Below, in pieces: positions 3-60,503 of a DNA stretch of 64,000 bases. Every line of letters starts with the position of its first letter. Within the stretch, counting starts at the first letter, position 1. The position numbers were made by a program, and so were the translations under genes. The notes under the pieces were generated by a model, which worked only from the letters and a program-made list of their open reading frames with translations, did not search any database and was not told the DNA's origin. The DNA lies in contig CAZVTM010000001.1 in NCBI GenBank assembly GCA_964630205.1, forward strand, positions 27,069-91,068, read 5' to 3'. The DNA comes from an uncultured Helicobacter sp. Its GTDB lineage: Bacteria; Campylobacterota; Campylobacteria; Campylobacterales; UBA6016.

Positions 3-809
3 GCCAAAAAAAGACGTATCCCCTATCTTGTCTACGACAAGGGGCTGGAAATAGTCAAAGAATACGAAAATAATATTACCTGGTCCGCAAAACTAAGGGA
101 GGCTCTTGCGGAGGATAGGATCATCCCTTATTATCAGCCGATAGTTGACTCAAAAAGCGGAAAGGTCGAAAAATACGAGGCAGTTGTAAGGCTGATTGAA
201 ACAAATGGCGCCGCCGTGTCCCCGTTTTTCTTTTTGGAGGTGTCAAAAAAAGCCAAGCTATACCAATCTATAACAAAAACCGTCATTGCAAAATCGTTTA
301 AAAAATTTGAAAACTCAAAGCATGCCGTTTCAATAAATATAACAACAGAGGACATACTCTCTCTTGGTGTCAGGGATTTTATTATTCAAAAACTATCTGA
401 ATCAGCCGGCAAAGTGAAGGTTATTTTCGAGATTGTAGAATCGGATGGTATAGAGAATTATGAAGAGGTTTCTAAGTTTATTGCCGACGCCAAAAAATAC
501 GGCGCAGAGATAGCGATTGATGATTTTGGTACTGGGTATTCAAATTTTGAACATATTTTGAGACTAAAAGTAGATTACATAAAAATAGACGGTAGTTTGA
601 TTAAAAATCTGCACATAGATAAGCATTCAGCTGTTATAGTGGAGACCATAGTCAGCTTTGCTAAAAAGCTCGGTATAAAAACGGTCGCAGAGTTTGTACA
701 CTCAAAAGACGTTATAGATAAGGTTGCTTCAATGGGAATAGACTATTCTCAAGGGTTTTACCTCTCAGAGCCAAAAGAAGAGCTTTCCGATAGGCCGTTT
801 CTACCGTGA
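3..809 (+). CDS. EAL-domain c-di-GMP phosphodiesterase, C-terminal portion (5' end outside window)
   Basis: The frame is open from nt 3, so the GTG at 216 in the ORF track is internal. The translation carries EAL-family blocks YYQPIV, KYEAVVRL, FEIVES, DDFGTGYSNF, IKIDGSLI, YSQGFY. Confidence 0.85.
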   Translation, partial: AKKRRIPYLVYDKGLEIVKEYENNITWSAKLREALAEDRIIPYYQPIVDSKSGKVEKYEAVVRLIETNGAAVSPFFFLEVSKKAKLYQSITKTVIAKSFKKFENSKHAVSINITTEDILSLGVRDFIIQKLSESAGKVKVIFEIVESDGIENYEEVSKFIADAKKYGAEIAIDDFGTGYSNFEHILRLKVDYIKIDGSLIKNLHIDKHSAVIVETIVSFAKKLGIKTVAEFVHSKDVIDKVASMGIDYSQGFYLSEPKEELSDRPFLP

Positions 810-1117
810 TACTTATCTATATGACCGCAAAAGATAAGGCGGAAGCGGCAAAAATAGCAAAAGAGCTGCTCTCCAAAAAGATGATAGCATGCGCAAATAT
901 ATTTGAAGGTGTAACCTCCGTGTATGAGTGGAACGGTCGGCTTTGCGAAGAGGGCGAGGTTGTTGCGGTGATGAAAAGCAGGGCCGAATTGTTCGAGCGG
1001 ATAAAAGATGAGATTTTAAGTATGCACTCTTACGAAAATCCGGCGATAGTGTGTATGAAGGCGGATGGGGCGAGCGAGGCTTTTACTGAATGGATAGAGA
1101 GGCAAACCCCATTTTAA
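806..1117 (+). CDS. cutA: divalent-cation tolerance protein CutA
   Basis: 103 aa. The GTG start overlaps the EAL stop (GTGA). [32 protein letters not shown] matches the CutA1 family pattern. Confidence 0.85.
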
Positions 1118-1580
1118 TATCTTTTTTTACATCTTCGCCGACGTATCCGGCCTCTGTTAGTGCCGTAGCGTCGGCTACGGCAAACGGTACATTCATGATG
1201 CGGGCTAGGCTTTTTGCCAGTAGCGTCTTGCCGCTCCCAGTAGGGCCGATGAGTAGGATATTGCTTTTTTCAATTTCTACGCCTCTGTGGATAGGCTTTT
1301 CTATTCGTTTGTAGTGATTATAGAGGGCTACCGCCAAAGTCATTTTTGCTTTTTCTTGACCTATGCAGTAATTATCGAGGAATTTTACTATTTCAGCAGG
1401 TTTTGGCAGCCCTTTTTGAAATTTTGTTTTTTCTTCCTTTAGCCTCTCTTTGTCAAGAACGGCGTGGCATGTCTCTATGCACTCATCGCATATCGAGATG
1501 TTTTCGACAGAGAACATTTTTTTTGTATCTTTTTGGCTTTTCCCACAAAAAGAACAGACAGCCACGTCTTCCATGACCAA
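1083..1580 (-). pseudogene. clpX: ClpX-type AAA+ unfoldase, N-terminal ~40% only (truncated paralogue)
   Basis: The 165-aa ORF has a C4 zinc ribbon (CSFCGK..CDEC), [21 protein letters not shown] and Walker A GPTGSGKT. It leaves the ClpX pattern right after AGYVGEDV. About 250 aa (Walker B, sensor, C-domain) are absent. The last ~11 codons are antisense of the cutA 3' end. Confidence 0.8.
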
Positions 1581-1583
1581 CTC

Positions 1584-1976
1584 CTAGATTTTTTTTGATA
1601 CCTCGCGAAGCATATCATCTGCTTTTTCGCATCCATGGGCGGCTATCACTTTGATGCCAGCCTCTTCAAATACGATTTTGGTGTTTTTGCAAGCCTTGTC
1701 AACGCCTAGAATTCCACAATCTTTGACAATTTCCGCCATTATTCTATGGTCATTTTTGTGCTCTTCGGCATCGCCTTCGTGATGGCATTTGCCGTGAGCG
1801 TCTTCGCACTCGTGTTCGTGATCGGCGTTAATTCTAGGATTTGCCCTTAGTTCTACAAGTTTAAAGCTTTTGAACATTCCGCTGCCGTTTAGCTCGTAAA
1901 CTGCAAAAAACGGTGTGTGTCCGGCATTTTTAAATATCTTTAGACTTTCATTGTGTACAGGTATTGCTACTCTCAT
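1584..1976 (-). CDS. NifB/NifX-family (FeMo-cofactor-binding fold) protein with His/Cys/acidic insert
   Basis: 130 aa. It starts MRVAIPV...HFGHTP-like (NAGHTPFFAVYE) and has a C-terminal GI..V.A...G, as in NifX/NifB C-domain proteins. A central loop reads NADHEHECEDAHGKCHHEGDAEEHKNDH. There is a 3-nt gap to the clpX fragment. Confidence 0.6.
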   Translation of the reverse strand: MRVAIPVHNESLKIFKNAGHTPFFAVYELNGSGMFKSFKLVELRANPRINADHEHECEDAHGKCHHEGDAEEHKNDHRIMAEIVKDCGILGVDKACKNTKIVFEEAGIKVIAAHGCEKADDMLREVSKKI

Positions 1977-2024
1977 ATATTATCTCCGTTTTTTATCCGG
2001 ATTGTAGAGTCAAATAGCTTTCAA

Positions 2025-2225
2025 CTATCTTTTATGGATAGCGTCGCTTGGACATACAGAAACACAAGCTAGCTCTCCGCCGTCGCACTCTGTACATTTG
2101 TTTTCAAGAACAAAGAATATGTCCGCACCACTTGGATTTTTGTCGTTGTCTACTATTGCTCCGTTTGGGCATTCGTCGGCACAGGCCGCACAGTTGATGC
2201 ACTCTTCGTTGATAAATACTGCCAT
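2025..2225 (-). CDS. 2x[4Fe-4S] ferredoxin
   Basis: 66 aa with two cluster motifs (CINCAACADECP and CTEC...CVSVCP). Confidence 0.85.
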   Translation of the reverse strand: MAVFINEECINCAACADECPNGAIVDNDKNPSGADIFFVLENKCTECDGGELACVSVCPSDAIHKR

Positions 2226-2285
2226 GATTTTCTCCTTAGATTTTATTGCGTATTTATAAATGCATATTGGATTCCGTAAAAGCTG

Positions 2286-2301
2286 CGGAACACCAAATGC
2301 A
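2286..2301 (+). promoter_or_regulatory. candidate sigma54 (-24/-12) promoter upstream of nifB
   Basis: Sequence cGGAACaccaaaTGCA has GG and GC separated by 10 nt, as in TGGCAC-N5-TTGC. GGAAC matches the Campylobacter-type -24 element. The -12 GC lies 37 nt upstream of the nifB ATG, followed by an AAAGGAG SD. Confidence 0.45.
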
Positions 2302-2336
2302 AATACTCCTTCAAAGCTATTTTAAAGGAGTCCGAG

Positions 2337-3745
2337 ATGAGCTGCGGATGTTCAGGCGGCACTACGTCTACGATAGATGAGAAAACACTTTCAATGATAA
2401 ACGACCACCCATGCTACAGCAAGGATGCGCACTACTCTTACGCGAGAATCCACCTTCCGGTTGCCCCTGCCTGTAATATACAGTGCAACTACTGCAACCG
2501 TAAGTTTGACTGCTCCAATGAGTCAAGACCTGGGGTTACGAGCCAAAAGCTAAAGCCTCTTGATGCACTCAAAAAAGTGCTCCTCGTGGGAAGCGAAATC
2601 AAAAATCTCTCAGTCGTAGGTATAGCGGGTCCGGGCGACGCTCTTGCCAACCCGCAAAAAACATTTGAGACGCTGGCTTTGGTGCGTGAGTATGCGCCGG
2701 ATTTGAAACTTTGCCTATCTACAAACGGGCTTAAACTACCGGAATTTGTGGAGCAGATAAAAGAAGCCGGCGTAGATCATATCACCGTCACTATCAATAC
2801 GATAGACCCGAAAGTCGGCGCCCAGATTTATCCGTGGGTCTACTTTGAGGGCAAAAGATACAAAGGCGAAGAGGCTGCGGCACTACTGCTGTCAAAACAG
2901 CTAGAAGGCATCAAAAAATGCGTAGAAGCCGGTATCCTCATCAAAGCAAACTCCGTTCTAATCCCTGGTGTAAACGAAGATGATTTGCCAAATGTCTCCA
3001 AAAAACTAAAAGAGTTTGGCGTGTTTTTGCACAACATCATGCCGCTTCTGAGTGAACCGGAGTTTGGTACTTATTACGGGCTAAACGGCGTGCCTTCGGC
3101 TACGGAAGAGCAGCTAGCCAAAGCGCAAGAGGCGTGCGGAATGGATATTAGCCTGATGACACACTGCAAACAATGCCGTGCCGATGCCATAGGTATTTTG
3201 GGTGAAGATAGAAGCGCCGAGTTTGCCCTGAGAGCTTTGGCGATAAAAGCATGGAAGAGCTTGTGGCGCTATACGACATCGAAGGGCGTAAAAAAGAAAA
3301 AGAGAGAATTGAGAGCTTTGGGCTAATCCTAAAAGAGGTAAACGAGAGAGCTGAGAGTGAACGAAAAATGCTCTCATCAAGAGGCGAGACTGTTATGATG
3401 GCAGTAACTTCGAGCGATTTTGAAAGCGTCAATGAACACTTTGGAACCGTAAAAGAGTTCCTCATATATGAAGCGGGCGATATGGGCTTTAGATTTTTGA
3501 CCAAACGCTCCGTAGGTGCCGGATATTGCGCGGGTCCTGACTCTTGCGAAAATCCGATGGATGACATCAAGGCGGCTCTACACGATGTTAAGCTGCTTAT
3601 TACGGCAAAAATCGGCGGTTGTCCGCAGGATACGCTAAAAGAGGTCGGCGTGGTAAGTATAGAAAAATATGCAAAAGCGCCTATTGCCGAGGCGGTAATG
3701 TCTGCTGCAAAAGAGTATTTCGGACAAGAATCTGAAGAGGGGTAA
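2337..3745 (+). pseudogene. nifB: FeMo-cofactor biosynthesis radical-SAM protein NifB (radical SAM + NifX-like C-domain) split by one frameshift near nt 3230
   Basis: ORF 2337..3326 has HPCYS, CNIQCNYCNRKFDC (CxxxCxxC), GIAGPGDAL and CKQCRADAIGILGEDRS. A second frame (open from 3212 to 3745) continues with a linker and a NifX-like domain (MMAVTSSD..HFG..EFLIYE). A 1-nt indel around 3226-3232 would join them. Confidence 0.8.
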
Positions 3746-3762
3746 TCCTCAAAGGAGATATC

Positions 3763-4933
3763 ATGAGCCGCATCCTGATTAACGACACGACGCTTAGAGA
3801 TGGTGAACAGCGCCGTATGTCGCCTTTAGTCTCAAAGAGAAGCTGGAAATAGCAAAACTACTCGTGGAGGCAGGGGCGGATGAGCTAGAAATCGGTATTC
3901 CCGCAATGGGTGCAAAAGAGCGGGAGGCGGTAAGAGAGATACTTGCTCTTAACCTTAGTGTGCGACAAATGGGGTGGTGCAGGGCGACGGAGTCTGACCT
4001 CTGTGATGCTCTTGTCTGCGGGCTCAAAGCGGTTGATTTGTCTATTTCGACCAGTGAGCTACTCATGGAGGTAAAAAAACCTCTCAAAAGATAAGATATT
4101 TGCAAATTTGGAAAGCTCAATGACTCTGGCCAAAAAAGAGGGGCTATTTGTCTGTATCGGTGCAGAGGATGCGAGTCGTGCGAATGAAGGCTTCCTAAAA
4201 GAGCTTATAGGCTTTGTGAGTTCGCTTGGGGTGGATAGGTTTCGTTTTTGCGATACAGTGGGGATACTCACTCCAACGCAAACTTACAAAATTGTTAGTT
4301 CTATTACGGGCTGCGGTCTGCCTATCGAGATGCATACTCACAACGACTTCGGTATGGCAACTGCAAACGCCATAGCGGGCGTAGAGGCGGGAGCGACAAG
4401 TGTGAATACGACGACACTTGGTATAGGTGAGAGAGCTGGAAATGCGAGCTTTGAGCAGGTGACAATGAGCCTTATTTATCAGATAGGTGAGCAAAGAGAG
4501 ATGGATAGTGTAGCGCTAAAAGCTCTAACTGCCAAGGTCGCAAAAGCTAGCGGCATAGCCATAGCCGTCAATACTCCGGTCATCGACAAGAGGCTTTTTG
4601 CCCACGAGAGCGGTATACACGCTAGCGGCGTACTCAAAAACTCTGCCTCGTATGAGCCGTTTTCGCCAAAGGCGGTTGAGGGCAAGAAGGTGTATCCGAT
4701 AGGCAAGCACACGGGCAGAGACTCTATCTGCCACCGCCTTGAGTCTGTGGGCGTAGAGGCAAAAAAAGAAGAGCTTGGAGTTGTGCTTGACGAGGTGCGA
4801 GATAGCCTCAAAAATACACGACATAGTTGAAGACACGCTTTGGACCGAGTACAACGAGCTAAAACCGCTTAGCGAGCAAATTATCAAGGCTATCGATGAG
4901 TATTATGAGTTCAAAAAGGCAAATAATTTATAA
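3763..4933 (+). pseudogene. nifV: homocitrate synthase NifV with three frameshifts
   Basis: MSRILINDTTLRDGEQ, then out of frame. The rest reads in other frames as ..VAFSLKEKLEIAKLLVEAGADELEIGIPAMG.., ..HTHNDFGMATANAIAGVEAGATSVNTTTLGIGERAGNA.. and a C-terminal tail to 4933. Frames run 1>0>1>2, with lesions at ~3810, the A7 run 4073-4079 and the A5 run 4810-4814. Total length ~390 codons, as for NifV. Confidence 0.8.
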
Positions 4934-4943
4934 GGATTAAGCA

Positions 4944-5222
4944 ATGAAAGGTTGGGACGAGGAGCTATCCAAGACCGTAATATGCGAGTGCAGCGGAAAA
5001 ACAATTGGTGAGGCCATCTCAATCTTTCAGGGTACGGATTTGCCTTATAAAAAAGCAAAAAAATTGGTCACCGAATGTGACAAGACCTGCTGTCGCCAGC
5101 CATTGCAAAAGCTGTTTGACATGACTTATTTTGGCGAATTCGACATGCCAGAAATCGTCCGCCTCATAGAGATACGAAACAACCGCCTAAAACAGCTACT
5201 AGAATACATAGTCCCAAACTAA
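4944..5222 (+). CDS. BFD-like [2Fe-2S]-binding domain protein (tentative)
   Basis: 92 aa. VICECSGKTIGEAI ... TECDKTCC resembles the CxC-x(~30)-CxxC bacterioferritin-associated-ferredoxin pattern. It lies directly after nifV. Confidence 0.45.
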   Translation: MKGWDEELSKTVICECSGKTIGEAISIFQGTDLPYKKAKKLVTECDKTCCRQPLQKLFDMTYFGEFDMPEIVRLIEIRNNRLKQLLEYIVPN

Positions 5223-7954: not shown

Positions 7955-8391
7955 TTAAGCCGCTTTTGGCCGTTGTGGCCGCAATAGGTTTTGCGATGGT
8001 GTTCAAAGTTCGCAAAGAGCAAATCTGGCTTGTCGGCGTATTCGCCTTTTTTGGCTATCTTGTGCGTAATATTTTTATCGGAATGGGTTTTGGAATAGAG
8101 TTGTCCGTGTTGGCCGGAGCATTATGCGTCGGTATAATGGCGGATATTATCGGCAAAAAAACAAAAACACAGCTAAGAATATTGAAAGTTCCTGCTGGGA
8201 TACCGATGATACCGGGGTCATTTGTATTTGAGGCGATAAAAAATTTAATTGTATTTGTTTCGTCGGCAACCTCGGATGCAGACAAACTTTCAAACTTTTT
8301 TTATTTCGGCGGAAAAAGTGTATTTATTTTGGCGGCGTTGGCATTTGGACTTACGGCTTCTTCCGTGATTCTGAAGAAAACTAGCTCTTAA
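7942..8391 (+). CDS. threonine/serine exporter family protein, small subunit (YjjB-type)
   Basis: 149 aa with 4-5 TM helices. It overlaps the upstream ThrE-type gene by 13 nt. Confidence 0.7.
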   Translation: MDILIKPLLAVVAAIGFAMVFKVRKEQIWLVGVFAFFGYLVRNIFIGMGFGIELSVLAGALCVGIMADIIGKKTKTQLRILKVPAGIPMIPGSFVFEAIKNLIVFVSSATSDADKLSNFFYFGGKSVFILAALAFGLTASSVILKKTSS

Positions 8392-9079
8392 GTCGCCTTC
8401 TTAGCTCTTTAGCTCCCCTTTTGCTACTGATTACGAAATCGTCAATGTCGTAAAAGTACATTTTGTACTTACTTTCATTCATTGATTCCATGGATTTTAT
8501 TTTGTCTAGATTTACTAGATAGCTCCTATGAACCCTAAAGAAATTCATCTCTTTGAGTAGTTGTTCGGCCTCTTTAATCTGCATTGATACTTTTGCCCTC
8601 TTTTGGGGACTAAAAACTTCTATGCTTATTAGGTTGGCCTTTATGAAAGATACTTCGCCGGCGTTAATAATTATTTTTTTCCCGTTTTGCTTGCCTATAA
8701 AAGACGGCGCAGTTTTATGCTCGACGGACTGAGATGTTTTTAGCTTGACGTTCTCTTCTCTAAGTTTTTTTAGTTCAGTAATGTCTTTGCCGACTGCTTG
8801 AAACTCTACAATCTCACCTTTTTAATCAAAAACCGCGGTATTTTTCCATTCATGCCATATACCGCTTCTAGTACCGTTTTTTATTTGATATATTATTTTG
8901 GCAAGAGGTCTTTTGGGTGTTATTTTTGATAGGTTTTCAATAATATTGTTGTGTTCTGCTTTTGGAACAAATTCCAATATGTTTGTTCCTAGTATGTCAC
9001 TAAATTGCTTTTTAAAATGTTTGCAATAAGCTTCGTTTACGTAAATGATATTTAGATTCTTGTCGAACAAACACACCAT
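8381..9079 (-). pseudogene. PAS-LytTR one-component transcriptional regulator interrupted by an in-frame TAA (8822-8824)
   Basis: ORF 8822..9079 is a PAS-like segment (MVCLFDKNLNIIYVNEAYCKHF..ILGTNILEFV). The same frame continues after the TAA (KGEIVEFQAVGKDITELKKL...KIIINAGEVSFIKANLISIEV..) into a LytTR domain (FFRVHRSYLVNLDKI). The region is AT-rich by eye. Confidence 0.75.
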
Positions 9080-9160
9080 TTCCTCTTGAATGTCGATGAG
9101 AGGGCGGTATCTATCTTTTACTATTTGTAGTGCAGCATTGGAAGTTTTAAATTAAGAAGT

Positions 9161-41223: not shown

Positions 41224-42159
41224 ATGCCTTCTCTTCCCTTTGGTCCCGATTTTACCGTATTAGCCCCTCTTGCGGGTTATACGGATCTCCCTTTCCGCTC
41301 AGTTGTAAAAAAATTTGGCGTTGACCTCACGGTTAGCGAGATGATAAGCTCCAACGCCCTTGCTTATGCCAGTAAAAAAACAAAAAAAATAGCCGAAAAA
41401 AGCGAACGAGAGACCCCATACTCCGTGCAGATAGCCGGATATAAAGAAGATGTCGTCAAAAGGGCAGTAGAGGTGCTCAATGACATGGACGGTATCGATA
41501 TTATAGACCTCAACTGCGGCTGCCCTGCGCCAAAAGTGGTCGGAAACAACAGCGGAAGCGGACTACTAAAAGATTTGCCGCAGATGTCTAGGCTCATTGA
41601 GACAATCAAAAAAACATCCAACAAAGAGTATACATCTTGCAAAATCCGTCTCGGTTTTGAGGGCAAGCACGGTGTAGAGATAGCGAAAATCTGCGAAGAT
41701 AGCGGTGCTGACTTTATAGCCGTACATGGGCGTACACGGGCTATGAAATTTGGCGGCGAGGTGGATTACGAAGCGATAGGAGAGATAAAAGCGGCGGTTA
41801 AAATACCGGTTATCGCAAACGGCGATATAACGAGCTTTGAAAAAGCCAAATATGTCTCCGAGCTTACAGGGTGCGACGGTATCATGATAGGACGCGCCGC
41901 CATCGGAAATCCTTGGATATTCTATCAAATCAAACAAGGAAGCGCAGAGGTACCTAGCGGGCTAAAAAGAGAGGTCGTACTGGAGCATTTTGATGAGATG
42001 GTTAGATTTCACGGCGAGCGAGGTGTGATAATGTTTCGTAAGCATCTGCATACATACTCAAAAGGGATTGATGGTGCTACGTCGTTTCGTGTGCTTGTGA
42101 ACAAAATAGCAGACCCGAGACTGATGAGAGAGCACATTGGAGAGTTTTTTAGCGTTTAG
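41224..42159 (+). CDS. tRNA-dihydrouridine synthase
   Basis: 311 aa with LAPLAGYTD.PFR, DLNCGCP, VHGRTR and IANGDI. Confidence 0.9.
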   Translation: MPSLPFGPDFTVLAPLAGYTDLPFRSVVKKFGVDLTVSEMISSNALAYASKKTKKIAEKSERETPYSVQIAGYKEDVVKRAVEVLNDMDGIDIIDLNCGCPAPKVVGNNSGSGLLKDLPQMSRLIETIKKTSNKEYTSCKIRLGFEGKHGVEIAKICEDSGADFIAVHGRTRAMKFGGEVDYEAIGEIKAAVKIPVIANGDITSFEKAKYVSELTGCDGIMIGRAAIGNPWIFYQIKQGSAEVPSGLKREVVLEHFDEMVRFHGERGVIMFRKHLHTYSKGIDGATSFRVLVNKIADPRLMREHIGEFFSV

Positions 42160-42458
42160 TTTTTTAGCGCAAATTGCGTTTTGAAATATGCTCCTTTGTT
42201 GCCGTCTGCAGTGAACTCCATCGGCACCACCGTCTCTTTGCCACATACGTCATAGGTCCAATTCTCTTGCCATTTCCCACTAATCAAGAATACCTTTTCC
42301 ATGCCCGCCTCTTTGAGCGGTAAATATTCCGCACCTTCAACTTCACCGATTTTATTTACTTTGACGAGCTTGACGTTTTTTGTTTCACATTTATCTGCCT
42401 TGCTGATTCCGTATACATTTACCATTGCCGACACCATTGCGTTTGGTTGTGCATCCAC
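42156..42458 (-). CDS. hypothetical protein
   Basis: 100-aa ORF with a GTG start, no signal peptide and no motif recognised. It starts 8 nt after the putative Sel1 pseudogene stop. Confidence 0.35.
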   Translation of the reverse strand: MDAQPNAMVSAMVNVYGISKADKCETKNVKLVKVNKIGEVEGAEYLPLKEAGMEKVFLISGKWQENWTYDVCGKETVVPMEFTADGNKGAYFKTQFALKN

Positions 42459-42465
42459 GAGGAGC

Positions 42466-43077
42466 TTAAAAGTCGCCCTTGGTATCGCCTAATTTATTTA
42501 CAAGTTCTAGTTTTTGTCTAATTTGTTCAAACATCGGCATTGACGGGCCGATAGCTCTGGCGATATTTAGAGCTTTTTTTATTGTTGTTTTCACCTATGC
42601 TTTCATAATAGGCTACGCCTAAAATCAATATCGCTAGGCCATAGTTTTTGCGTGCGGAGCGCATCAGCATATCGTATGCTTTTATGTCAAGCGCCCTCTC
42701 TTTAATACTTCTTTTGCGCAGAGTTTCATACTTTTGATAATCGACTTTTCCGTTTTCCAAAAAGCTAAATTCTGGATCGCTATAAAAAGCGGTAAATACG
42801 AGATACATACCTTCAGCATTGCCGGCTTGTGCGCTTTCTCTGGCTAGGGCTCTTGCTTTTTGAATATCTTTTTTATGCCCCTTGTCGAAAAAACCAAGAT
42901 ACAGTTTTGCTAATGCGTTTTTGCTTCCACATTTCCGTTTTGAGATCCATTTTCGAACAATTTTGCCGCTTGTTCAAACTCTTTTTTTTGTAAAGCCAAC
43001 ATGCCGTCTTCGTATTCACCTGCGAAAAGGAAAGTTGCGGAGAGTGACAATGTGGCCGCAAAAAATATTTTCTTCAC
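42466..43077 (-). pseudogene. secreted Sel1-like repeat (Hcp-type) protein with two frameshifts
   Basis: GTG 43077 is preceded by AAGGA, and the signal peptide reads MKKIFFAATLSLSATFLFAG. Repeats follow (..NGNVEAK | NALAKLYLGFFDKGHKKDIQKARALARESAQAGNAEGMY.. | ..GLAILILGVAYYES..). The frame changes at the A5 run (plus T5 42918-42922) and probably at the A7 run (plus T7 42574-42580). Confidence 0.65.
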
Positions 43078-59849: not shown

Positions 59850-60503
59850 ATGAAACAGCAAAATTTTATCCTAACTGACGTAATACTTCTCGATATAGTC
59901 GGCTTCTCTCTGCTTTCAAATGTGCAACAATATGCGCTTATTACGGCTTTTTCTGAACTTTTTAGGAAAACATTGTCGAATTATGTCCAGCGGTAGGTCT
60001 GCATCTGATTTTATACTTGGGACTATATCTACTGGAGATGGATTCTATACTATTCTTGACCCCTCGCAGAAGGGGTTTGGGGCTATTTATGCTCTTTCTC
60101 TAAAAAATGTTGCAAAAAACTATCCTCTTTTGAGTATTTTAGAGGTGTTAAAGTCGCTTCGCATACAGGCTATCTTATACCTTTCGTCGGAATGGACGGC
60201 AGCAAAAACTTTATAGGCAACGGCATGAATCAGTGTGCTAGATATCTTGAGTTCAAAGTTGATGAACAGTTTGAGGGGTATGAAAACGGATACGCCATTA
60301 TGTCGGTAGAATCACACAGAAGCCTGGAGGCTCTTTTGATGAATAGCAAGACGCTGTATGATAAAGTCGAGCAGCTAAGCGTTCATATAACAGAGGAGAT
60401 AGCTTTTAGGGATAAGCATTCAAAGAGATTTAGAGGTTATTTGATAGATTTGCAAAGCGACTCTATAATAACATTTGCACAAGGCGGCAGGACTACTGCC
60501 TAA
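59850..60503 (+). pseudogene. stand-alone class III nucleotidyl cyclase-domain protein (~217 aa) with two compensating frameshifts
   Basis: Frame 0: MKQQNFILTDVILLDIVGFS (metal Asp block) to stop 59994. Frame 1: ..GTISTGDGFYTILD (second Asp block). Frame 0 again from ~60115: VKVASHTGYLIPFVGMDGSKNFIGNGMNQCARYLE (HTG and N..AR blocks). The shifts are near 59985-59996 and in an A6 run (60102-60107 or 60114-60119). Confidence 0.65.

Follow-up and report, generated by a model that had tools for sequence, protein, structure and literature searches.

Between a cutA gene and a gene for an ABC-F protein, the genome of an uncultured Helicobacter sp. (NCBI GenBank assembly GCA_964630205.1, contig CAZVTM010000001.1, positions 27,069 to 91,068) carries an islet of nitrogenase-cofactor (nif) genes, several of which are visibly broken and none of which is accompanied by nitrogenase structural genes. 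The question raised by this locus is whether it records the erasure of nitrogen fixation from a bacterial lineage or a more local event. The original prediction, made from this 64,000-nucleotide stretch alone (hereafter the window; G+C content 42%), had taken the islet for a relic of diazotrophy. Comparison with related genomes leads us to a different reading, to which we assign a probability of about 0.75: the window holds a known type of operon in recent, strain-level decay, with selection on nitrogen fixation relaxed and the decay still in progress. This is ordinary recent gene loss and not evidence of a lineage-wide loss of nitrogen fixation.

Listing and translation of the open reading frames (ORFs), together with hidden Markov model (HMM) scans of their products, reproduced the gene order and strands initially described, with two gene sets diverging from a short spacer (Table 1). 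The reported absence of nifHDK and nifA from the 64 kb was likewise borne out by tblastn searches with NifH, NifD, NifK, NifA, NifQ and NifT, none of which gave a match; neither nifHDK nor nifEN was found in the window or in any clade locus retrieved, and Rfam had no match in the window. A protein search with the frame-corrected NifB recovered intact relatives of 468-469 residues with 85-98% identity. In conspecific contigs (our loci L089-L092, L004 and L005; 97-99.5% nucleotide identity) the islet is intact and comprises eight genes, with clpX (399 aa), the 130-aa NifX-like gene and the ferredoxin on the minus strand, and nifB (469 aa), nifV (372 aa), a GNAT gene (277 aa), a Rop-like gene (60 aa) and the 92-aa gene on the plus strand. 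The same eight genes are intact in at least five other species-level lineages, namely those of GCA_050252455.1 (L001/L006), JAYSBP01 (L007), Helicobacteraceae bacterium UBA6016 (L008), CALJKN01 (L009) and the JGI contigs L002/L003 and L101; the genes flanking the islet partly differ among them, and in none of these sister lineages does nifH occur within 10 kb of it. Between species the dN/dS ratio is 0.01-0.08 for every islet gene (with dS saturated), the same range as for glnA and the ABC-F gene. This fixed arrangement under purifying selection argues that the islet is a functional conserved unit of the genus and not a remnant. Hence the missing nifHDK, nifEN and nifA do not mark a relic, for an undamaged islet with no nifHDK within 10 kb is what at least five sister species ordinarily show, as do Sulfurospirillum arcachonense and Halarcobacter. 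Of the proposal that diazotrophy is being erased, the part that holds is the decay under way in this genome; its extension to the lineage fails, since conspecifics and sister species are intact.

The lesions were mapped against the conspecific locus L089; the references cover about 16 kb, and the whole 64 kb was inspected for gaps between ORFs. Conspecific contigs are intact at every lesion site of the islet. As had been noticed, clpX is present as a fragment only, and it has suffered two deletions: an in-frame one of 303 bp, with its junction at 1127/1128 between two 12-bp repeats (TACATCTTCGCC), and one of 436 bp, with its junction at 1102/1103 between CAAACC repeats, which removed the 3' end of the gene. 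The latter reaches the convergent cutA gene, the product of which ends in ERQTPF in the window versus ERQTSG in L089. What is left of clpX matches the ClpX model NF003745 at positions 4-157 of 418 alone, thereby keeping the zinc-finger end, while the protein is a full 399 residues in L001, L089-L092 and others (548 bits for the sister protein). On the plus strand a deletion of 990 bp took the 3' end of nifV, all of the GNAT gene (277 aa) and the opening 15 codons of its Rop-like neighbour. This accounts for one of the three frameshifts that had been proposed in nifV: those at 3808 (-1, codon 16) and 4073 (+1, a run of six A lengthened to seven) stand, whereas the supposed third, at the A5 run 4810-4814, is really the 990-bp deletion, and the ORF at 4775-4933 represents the end of the Rop-like coding sequence, not that of nifV. 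The Rop-like remnant is 95.6% identical to the L001 Rop protein over 45 aa by tblastn, and the L001 protein scores 39.1 bits on PF05082. A further 1-bp deletion lies at 3759 in the nifB-nifV spacer.

The damage to nifV extends beyond these lesions. The reconstructed window NifV, for which two frame corrections are needed and the C-terminus of which is deleted, scores 440.5 bits on TIGR02660, below the cut-off of 462.9, versus 463.0 bits for the intact conspecific protein. To polarise the window's private substitutions we used conspecifics along with two outgroup species. For nifV this gave 15 nonsynonymous to 5 synonymous changes (15N:5S), or 11N:5S once four codons that align wrongly at the deletion junction are left out. 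The corresponding ratio of nonsynonymous to synonymous changes per site (pN/pS) is about 0.7-0.9, versus 0.06-0.10 in controls; pooled flanking genes show 11N:33S (Fisher p=0.0003, computed on the uncorrected nifV counts of 15N:5S). Several of the private changes strike Gly or Pro residues that are otherwise invariant. With two 1-bp indels, the 3' end gone and a neutral-looking excess of substitutions, the inactivation of nifV claimed at the outset is confirmed, and for much of the history that is private to the strain this homocitrate synthase gene has followed a neutral course.

Outside the islet, two more genes are broken in the window. One codes for a PAS-LytTR regulator, which is intact with 256 aa in L001 and L089; here a GAA to TAA nonsense substitution at 8822-8824 has turned E110 into a stop, and the start codon is lost to a deletion of 50 bp at 9130. 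The other, a 217-aa gene with an N-terminus containing LLDIVGFS, is intact in the conspecific L100 (99.1% nucleotide identity). Taken with the islet, four deletions of 50-990 bp are flanked by direct repeats of 5-12 bp, and all five of the genic 1-bp indels identified fall in nifB, nifV and the 217-aa gene, dispensable genes that total about 3.2 kb, with none in the other ~54 kb of coding sequence (P ~6e-7 for such clustering under random placement, by our estimate). The long housekeeping ORFs are intact on inspection of the 64 kb, as originally stated, including the 1471-aa gltB, the 957-aa uvrA and the 647-aa ABC-F gene. The short-repeat junctions, the nonsense substitution, the nonsynonymous excess in nifV and the confinement of the indels to dispensable genes together support the conclusion that the lesions are real and that the islet is decaying in this genome.

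The case of nifB is different. The single frame correction anticipated near 3230 was mapped against L089 to 3225-3229, where a run of four C is shortened to three. This -1 change divides a two-domain ORF, which is uninterrupted in all relatives, into an upstream ORF of 329 aa, made of about 297 native residues and a 32-residue out-of-frame tail, and a downstream ORF holding the NifX-like domain. The frame-corrected NifB scores 556.1 bits on TIGR01290 (cut-off 343.65), against 560.3 for the intact conspecific protein, and the uncorrected 329-aa ORF by itself still scores 469.2 bits. The downstream ORF matches TIGR01290 at positions 294-439 as well as TIGR02663 (nifX), and its domain gives 58.9 bits on Pfam Nitro_FeMo-Co in the corrected protein. 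Both the radical-SAM CxxxCxxC motif (CNIQCNYC) and the C-terminal CxxC (HCKQCRADA) lie 5' of the frameshift, which falls about 17 residues past the latter, the last conserved motif, in the linker before the NifX-like domain; residues 13-295 of the 329-aa ORF align along virtually the full chains of the stand-alone NifB structures 6Y1X, 7BI7 and 7JMB. The frameshift thus leaves a complete stand-alone catalytic domain, so that the inactivation of nifB is not established, and judging from its sequence the window nifB may still act as a stand-alone radical-SAM enzyme. Its private changes are 6N:13S (pN/pS 0.13), indistinguishable from genes under selection; nifB has been constrained until recently or still is. 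Set beside the neutral nifV, this low ratio suggests that nifV was lost first and then drifted, while nifB remained under constraint later. Separately, over the 11 kb aligned to L089, the mismatch of the window peaks at 8.4% at 2501-3000, inside nifB, compared with 0.2-4.4% in the other parts; a tract of recombination or the variation among alleles of the species may lie behind the peak.

These properties of nifB bear on the alternative that the operon has been remodelled and not abandoned. Some rhizobia without nifV use homocitrate from the host. By analogy, a split NifB, as a stand-alone radical-SAM protein with a separate NifX-like one, could still make the NifB cofactor (NifB-co) for a nitrogenase that has no homocitrate synthase of its own and works on a citrate-containing cofactor or on homocitrate from other pathways or from neighbours. 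The span and the score of the 329-aa ORF agree with this, and the contrast of the nifB substitutions with neutral nifV would mean that NifB was useful after the death of nifV; moreover, Klebsiella oxytoca NifB without its NifX-like domain supports nitrogenase in vivo (PMC5715403). However, clpX, the GNAT gene and the Rop-like gene are destroyed too, which general abandonment fits better; a very recent frameshift would explain the nifB substitutions equally well; and no Shine-Dalgarno-like sequence is apparent by eye before the ATG at 3251. We therefore consider remodelling improbable, although it fares best among the alternatives to decay.

To place the islet among other nif loci we scanned genome contigs for nifB and examined 80 loci, four clade species among them; none of these clade species had nifH within 10 kb. 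A metagenome scan with the conspecific NifB gave, among the matches listed, one further clade locus. Among 40 members read from each of four NifH clusters (90% identity), none lay on a contig of a length known for the clade, a weak negative. Throughout Campylobacterota, the 80 loci show the order nifB-nifV-GNAT-Rop-like-92aa again and again, opposite clpX and a NifX-like gene. About 34 loci of Sulfuricurvum, Sulfurimonas and Sulfurovum have nifH 1-6 kb downstream of the 92-aa gene, and an HMM check of one of them (L039) showed nifD and nifK following nifH. In S. arcachonense, Halarcobacter and Sulfurovaceae loci the nifB operon is unlinked to nifHDK; its separation in several groups indicates that dispersal of nif genes is normal in Campylobacterota. 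On the same ground we rejected the idea that the islet is what was left after nifEN and nifHDK were excised from one big cluster. The window's clade has a NifB with about 60% identity to each of the two other lineages, while these are 64-69% identical between themselves. The nearest outgroup (NifB 66%) has on one contig the array nifB-nifV-GNAT-Rop-like-110aa-NifQ-NifA-RpoN...NifT, and a further nearest-outgroup locus (L087, 10001-13364; Logan SRR19603269) holds a bare nifB-nifV-GNAT triad among unrelated genes. A histidine kinase gene lies on one side of this triad and polysaccharide-export genes on the other, and amtB is 6 kb distant; the trio seems to be an indivisible operon core.

The outgroup NifA was then the bait that recovered a sister NifA (529.5 bits on TIGR01817; cut-off 528.85), with NifQ, the molybdenum donor for the iron-molybdenum cofactor (FeMo-co), encoded just before it. 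This sister nifQ-nifA pair lies on the same 2.19-Mb JGI contig (Ga0645783_00006) as the sister islet. The same mini-islet occurs in L099 (9589-11554; JGI Ga0643523_0000025), among ftsZ, ftsA, rsmH and a gene for an SLT-domain protein, and NCBI annotates NifA in the assembly of L001. The minimum set for a functional Mo-nitrogenase is nifH, D, K, E, N and B. A dispersed Mo-nitrogenase regulon is most likely the state of the genus; we infer that nifHDK lie elsewhere in its genomes and that the window's strain is phenotypically Nif-minus or impaired. The contrary proposal is that the genus lacks nitrogenase structural genes and keeps a sigma54/NifA-controlled NifB-NifV-NifQ-NifX-like-ClpX pathway for the metallocluster of some other enzyme, abandoned in this strain: it could draw on the absence of nifH, nifD and nifK from the 10 kb around the islet (seven clade lineages) and from the surroundings of nifQ-nifA, and on the bare triad of L087, yet it is highly unlikely given that each gene of the operon has its orthologue in the nifHDK-adjacent one of Sulfuricurvum, Sulfurimonas and Sulfurovum, that a sister genome has NifQ and an equivalog-level NifA, that nifB operons are unlinked to nifHDK in Halarcobacter and S. 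arcachonense too, and that we know of no client besides nitrogenase for NifB-co or for the homocitrate made by NifV.

Several points weigh against our reading of the locus as recent decay of a nitrogen-fixation operon. Each of the six 1-bp indels identified alters the length of an A or C homopolymer, the class of change most prone to sequencing error, and the source record may be a consensus from a metagenome-assembled genome (MAG). The nifB lesion may not inactivate, so that loss of diazotrophy is not proven. The nifH, D, K, E and N genes of the genus were not seen, none lying within 10 kb of the islet or of nifQ-nifA, and the nif inventory of the window's strain rests on the 64-kb window. 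The first of these points, in a record that is also unannotated, could be taken to mean that the lesions arose in sequencing, assembly or binning and that the islet is functional in the real organism, as could the frame-restoring +1/-1 pair that nifV and the 217-aa gene each carry (with stops between the pair in the 217-aa gene as in nifV); we give this very little credence, because the repeats at the four larger deletions are too short to collapse an assembly and because errors of this kind account neither for the nonsense substitution in the PAS-LytTR gene, nor for the private nonsynonymous excess in nifV with its hits on invariant Gly and Pro positions, nor for the crowding of the genic indels into dispensable genes.

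On the preferred reading of strain-level decay, then, the strain would here carry its version of a nitrogenase-cofactor module that is standard in Campylobacterota and made of two divergent operons, of which the plus-strand one is probably driven by the sigma54-type promoter. In the genus the module stands alone, with the other nif genes at other loci, as seen for nifQ-nifA in a sister and presumed for nifHDK and nifEN. In the window's strain it has taken at least seven independent hits: three repeat-flanked deletions that destroyed clpX, the 3' end of nifV, the GNAT gene and the first part of the Rop-like one, and four 1-bp indels, two disrupting nifV, one splitting nifB at the interdomain linker and one in the nifB-nifV spacer. 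Most likely selection has been relaxed in the strain or its population, as could happen where fixed nitrogen is steadily supplied.

Table 1. Coordinates of the islet features and of further decayed genes in the window
Feature	Position	Strand	Remarks
cutA	806-1117	+	Pfam CutA1, 110 bits; last two codons altered by the 436-bp deletion starting at 1102/1103
clpX fragment, nif-linked paralogue	1083-1580	-	165 codons, about 150 native; zinc finger and Walker A region
NifX-like gene	1584-1976	-	130 aa, His-rich insert; intact
2x[4Fe-4S] ferredoxin	2025-2225	-	66 aa; Pfam Fer4, Fer4_7, Fer4_9; intact
Spacer between the divergent gene sets	2226-2336		111 nt
Sigma54-type -24/-12 element	2286-2304	+	CGGAACACCAAATGCAAAT; 33 nt upstream of the nifB ATG
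nifB, radical-SAM (catalytic) part	2337-3326	+	329-aa ORF
NifX-like C-terminal domain of NifB	3251-3745	+	164 aa; split off by the frameshift as an ORF with an ATG of its own
nifV pseudogene	3763-4796	+	-1 at 3808, +1 at 4073, 3' end deleted
Junction of the 990-bp deletion	4796/4797		between GCGAGA repeats
Rop-like (PF05082) gene, 3' remnant	4797-4933	+	45 codons; intact form 60 aa
92-aa nif-cluster ORF	4944-5222	+	intact; followed by the 647-aa ABC-F gene
PAS-LytTR regulator pseudogene adjoining glnA	8381-9151	-	nonsense codon and 50-bp deletion
217-aa gene, no Pfam family	59850-60503	+	broken; +1 at 59979, -1 at 60113

The remaining parts of the islet are intact. The 130-aa NifX-like protein matches Pfam PF02579 (Nitro_FeMo-Co) weakly, with 20.3 bits (E=7e-4), short of the 26.3-bit gathering score. 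In JGI and NCBI records it is called a NifX-family or NifB/NifX-family cluster-binding protein; an identical protein was found in 15 contigs, and it is 25-31% identical to the protein at the same position in Sulfuricurvum and Sulfurimonas clusters. The 66-aa ferredoxin is 100% identical to its L001 counterpart. The sigma54-type promoter foreseen in the spacer is present as a GG-N10-GC element (CGGAAC-N6-TGCA), and it is kept 5' of nifB in every clade locus as well as in two outgroup loci, L086 and L087, and this even in L002 and L008, where the upstream DNA is unrelated; its conservation despite unrelated flanks fits control by a NifA encoded elsewhere. The strict sigma54 pattern is enriched upstream of nifB relative to a background of 0.0065 per 230 nt. 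A composite DNA pattern joining this element to the NifH P-loop was tried and dropped, for most nifH loci lack the strict promoter pattern. The 92-aa protein had been taken for a BFD-like (PF04324) [2Fe-2S] protein, an assignment that the searches do not bear out, with no Pfam match even at E<=1 and no NCBIfam match; its invariant CxC-x28-C-x3-CC resembles the BFD ligand pattern CxC...CxxC without matching it. The gene follows the Rop-like gene in most Campylobacterota nif loci examined, and a single-sequence AlphaFold model of the protein was poor (predicted local distance difference test score 58.5).

Some further observations concern the neighbourhood of the islet and the rest of the window. 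CutA is 74% identical between the window and L001 (7728-8039), as against 98% for the neighbouring GGDEF/EAL protein and 91% for ClpX, and cutA is absent from the slot by clpX in L002, L008 and L101, so that this slot looks variable or recombining. The PAS-LytTR regulator gene lies between ThrE-like genes and glnA, 3 kb from the islet, and it evolves fast, its product showing 57-71% amino-acid identity between species. At 42156-43077 on the minus strand, about 0.9 kb of the window holds short ORFs only (100, 93 and 55 aa), which gave no family matches and of which the 55-aa one has a lipoprotein-like signal; this could be another decayed gene. In L089 (11907-14079) gene calling divides a dCache-GGDEF-EAL gene in two, giving a GGDEF protein of 478 aa and an EAL protein of 197 aa, where L090, L091 and L001 have a single 723-aa gene; breakage of signalling genes seems not to be confined to one strain of this species. 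Exact-match look-up of the ABC-F protein and of a 223-aa ORF returned no record, probably owing to differing start calls. In Sulfuricurvum a clpP paralogue (CLP_protease, 235 bits) stands beside the nif-linked clpX (L023, 4432-5028; L039, 7356-7949), and the nif clusters of that genus hold two further conserved genes of unknown function, whereas the window's genus has clpX without clpP.

The organism had initially been placed near Campylobacter, a genus not regarded as diazotrophic, on the strength of its synteny. Its closest relatives are instead MAGs labelled Campylobacterales or Helicobacteraceae bacterium, including UBA6016, and the nearest named LepA proteins are those of Hydrogenimonas (77%) and then of Nitrosophilus and Nitratiruptor (75-76%). 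The organism thus belongs to an uncultured lineage, probably the GTDB genus UBA6016, which has been reported as a genus of Campylobacterales from thermal water in a paper whose text gives no nif data per bin. Campylobacterota include 15N2-verified diazotrophs with nif clusters of the islet's kind (PMC12029903, PMC11474244), among them Sulfurimonas isolates (PMC12029903). The 704-aa LepA of 'Sulfurimonas sp. C5' (72% identity) was rejected as a relative on account of an internal duplication: in L088 (8788-10902; GCA_029872055.1) residues ~262-370 are repeated in tandem, by assembly artefact or in reality.

The locus offers a clean, well-dated case of within-species loss of nitrogen-fixation accessory genes, and it cautions that nifB or nifV matches in MAGs of this group are no guarantee of function. 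Conversely, with nif genes scattered in mini-islets in this genus and several other Campylobacterota, the absence of nifHDK beside nifB says nothing on diazotrophy. The natural frameshift also splits NifB exactly where engineers have cut it to obtain a minimal NifB; if the split allele is active, it would be a natural experiment on the dispensability of the NifX-like domain.

Among known systems, the catalytic domain of the window nifB corresponds end to end to the methanogen stand-alone NifB proteins and to the trimmed K. oxytoca NifB. These are catalytically sufficient; the window form, which may be active too, is a frameshift product with a 32-residue out-of-frame tail.

Azotobacter vinelandii ClpX2 has been reported to control the levels of NifB and NifEN. 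Like it, the Campylobacterota protein is encoded by a clpX paralogue within nif genes; unlike it, the Campylobacterota protein keeps the N-terminal C4 zinc finger, and of this gene the window retains about 150 codons. The nifV-less rhizobia resemble the window in having lost homocitrate synthase while NifB is kept under constraint, but they are host-supplied symbionts with intact nifHDKENB, whereas in the window the neighbouring accessory genes are destroyed too. The closest counterparts are the clusters of Sulfuricurvum, Sulfurimonas and Sulfurovum, which share with the window the nifB-nifV-GNAT-Rop-like-92aa order, the divergent NifX-like gene and clpX and, in several cases, a sigma54-type element upstream of nifB, at identities of 58-61% for NifB, 52-63% for NifV and 63-69% for ClpX. 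They differ in having nifH-nifD-nifK 1-6 kb downstream and clpP by clpX, where the window's genus has a lone module followed by the ABC-F gene. The operon type is thus already known, and the window's copy is a new, decayed member of it.

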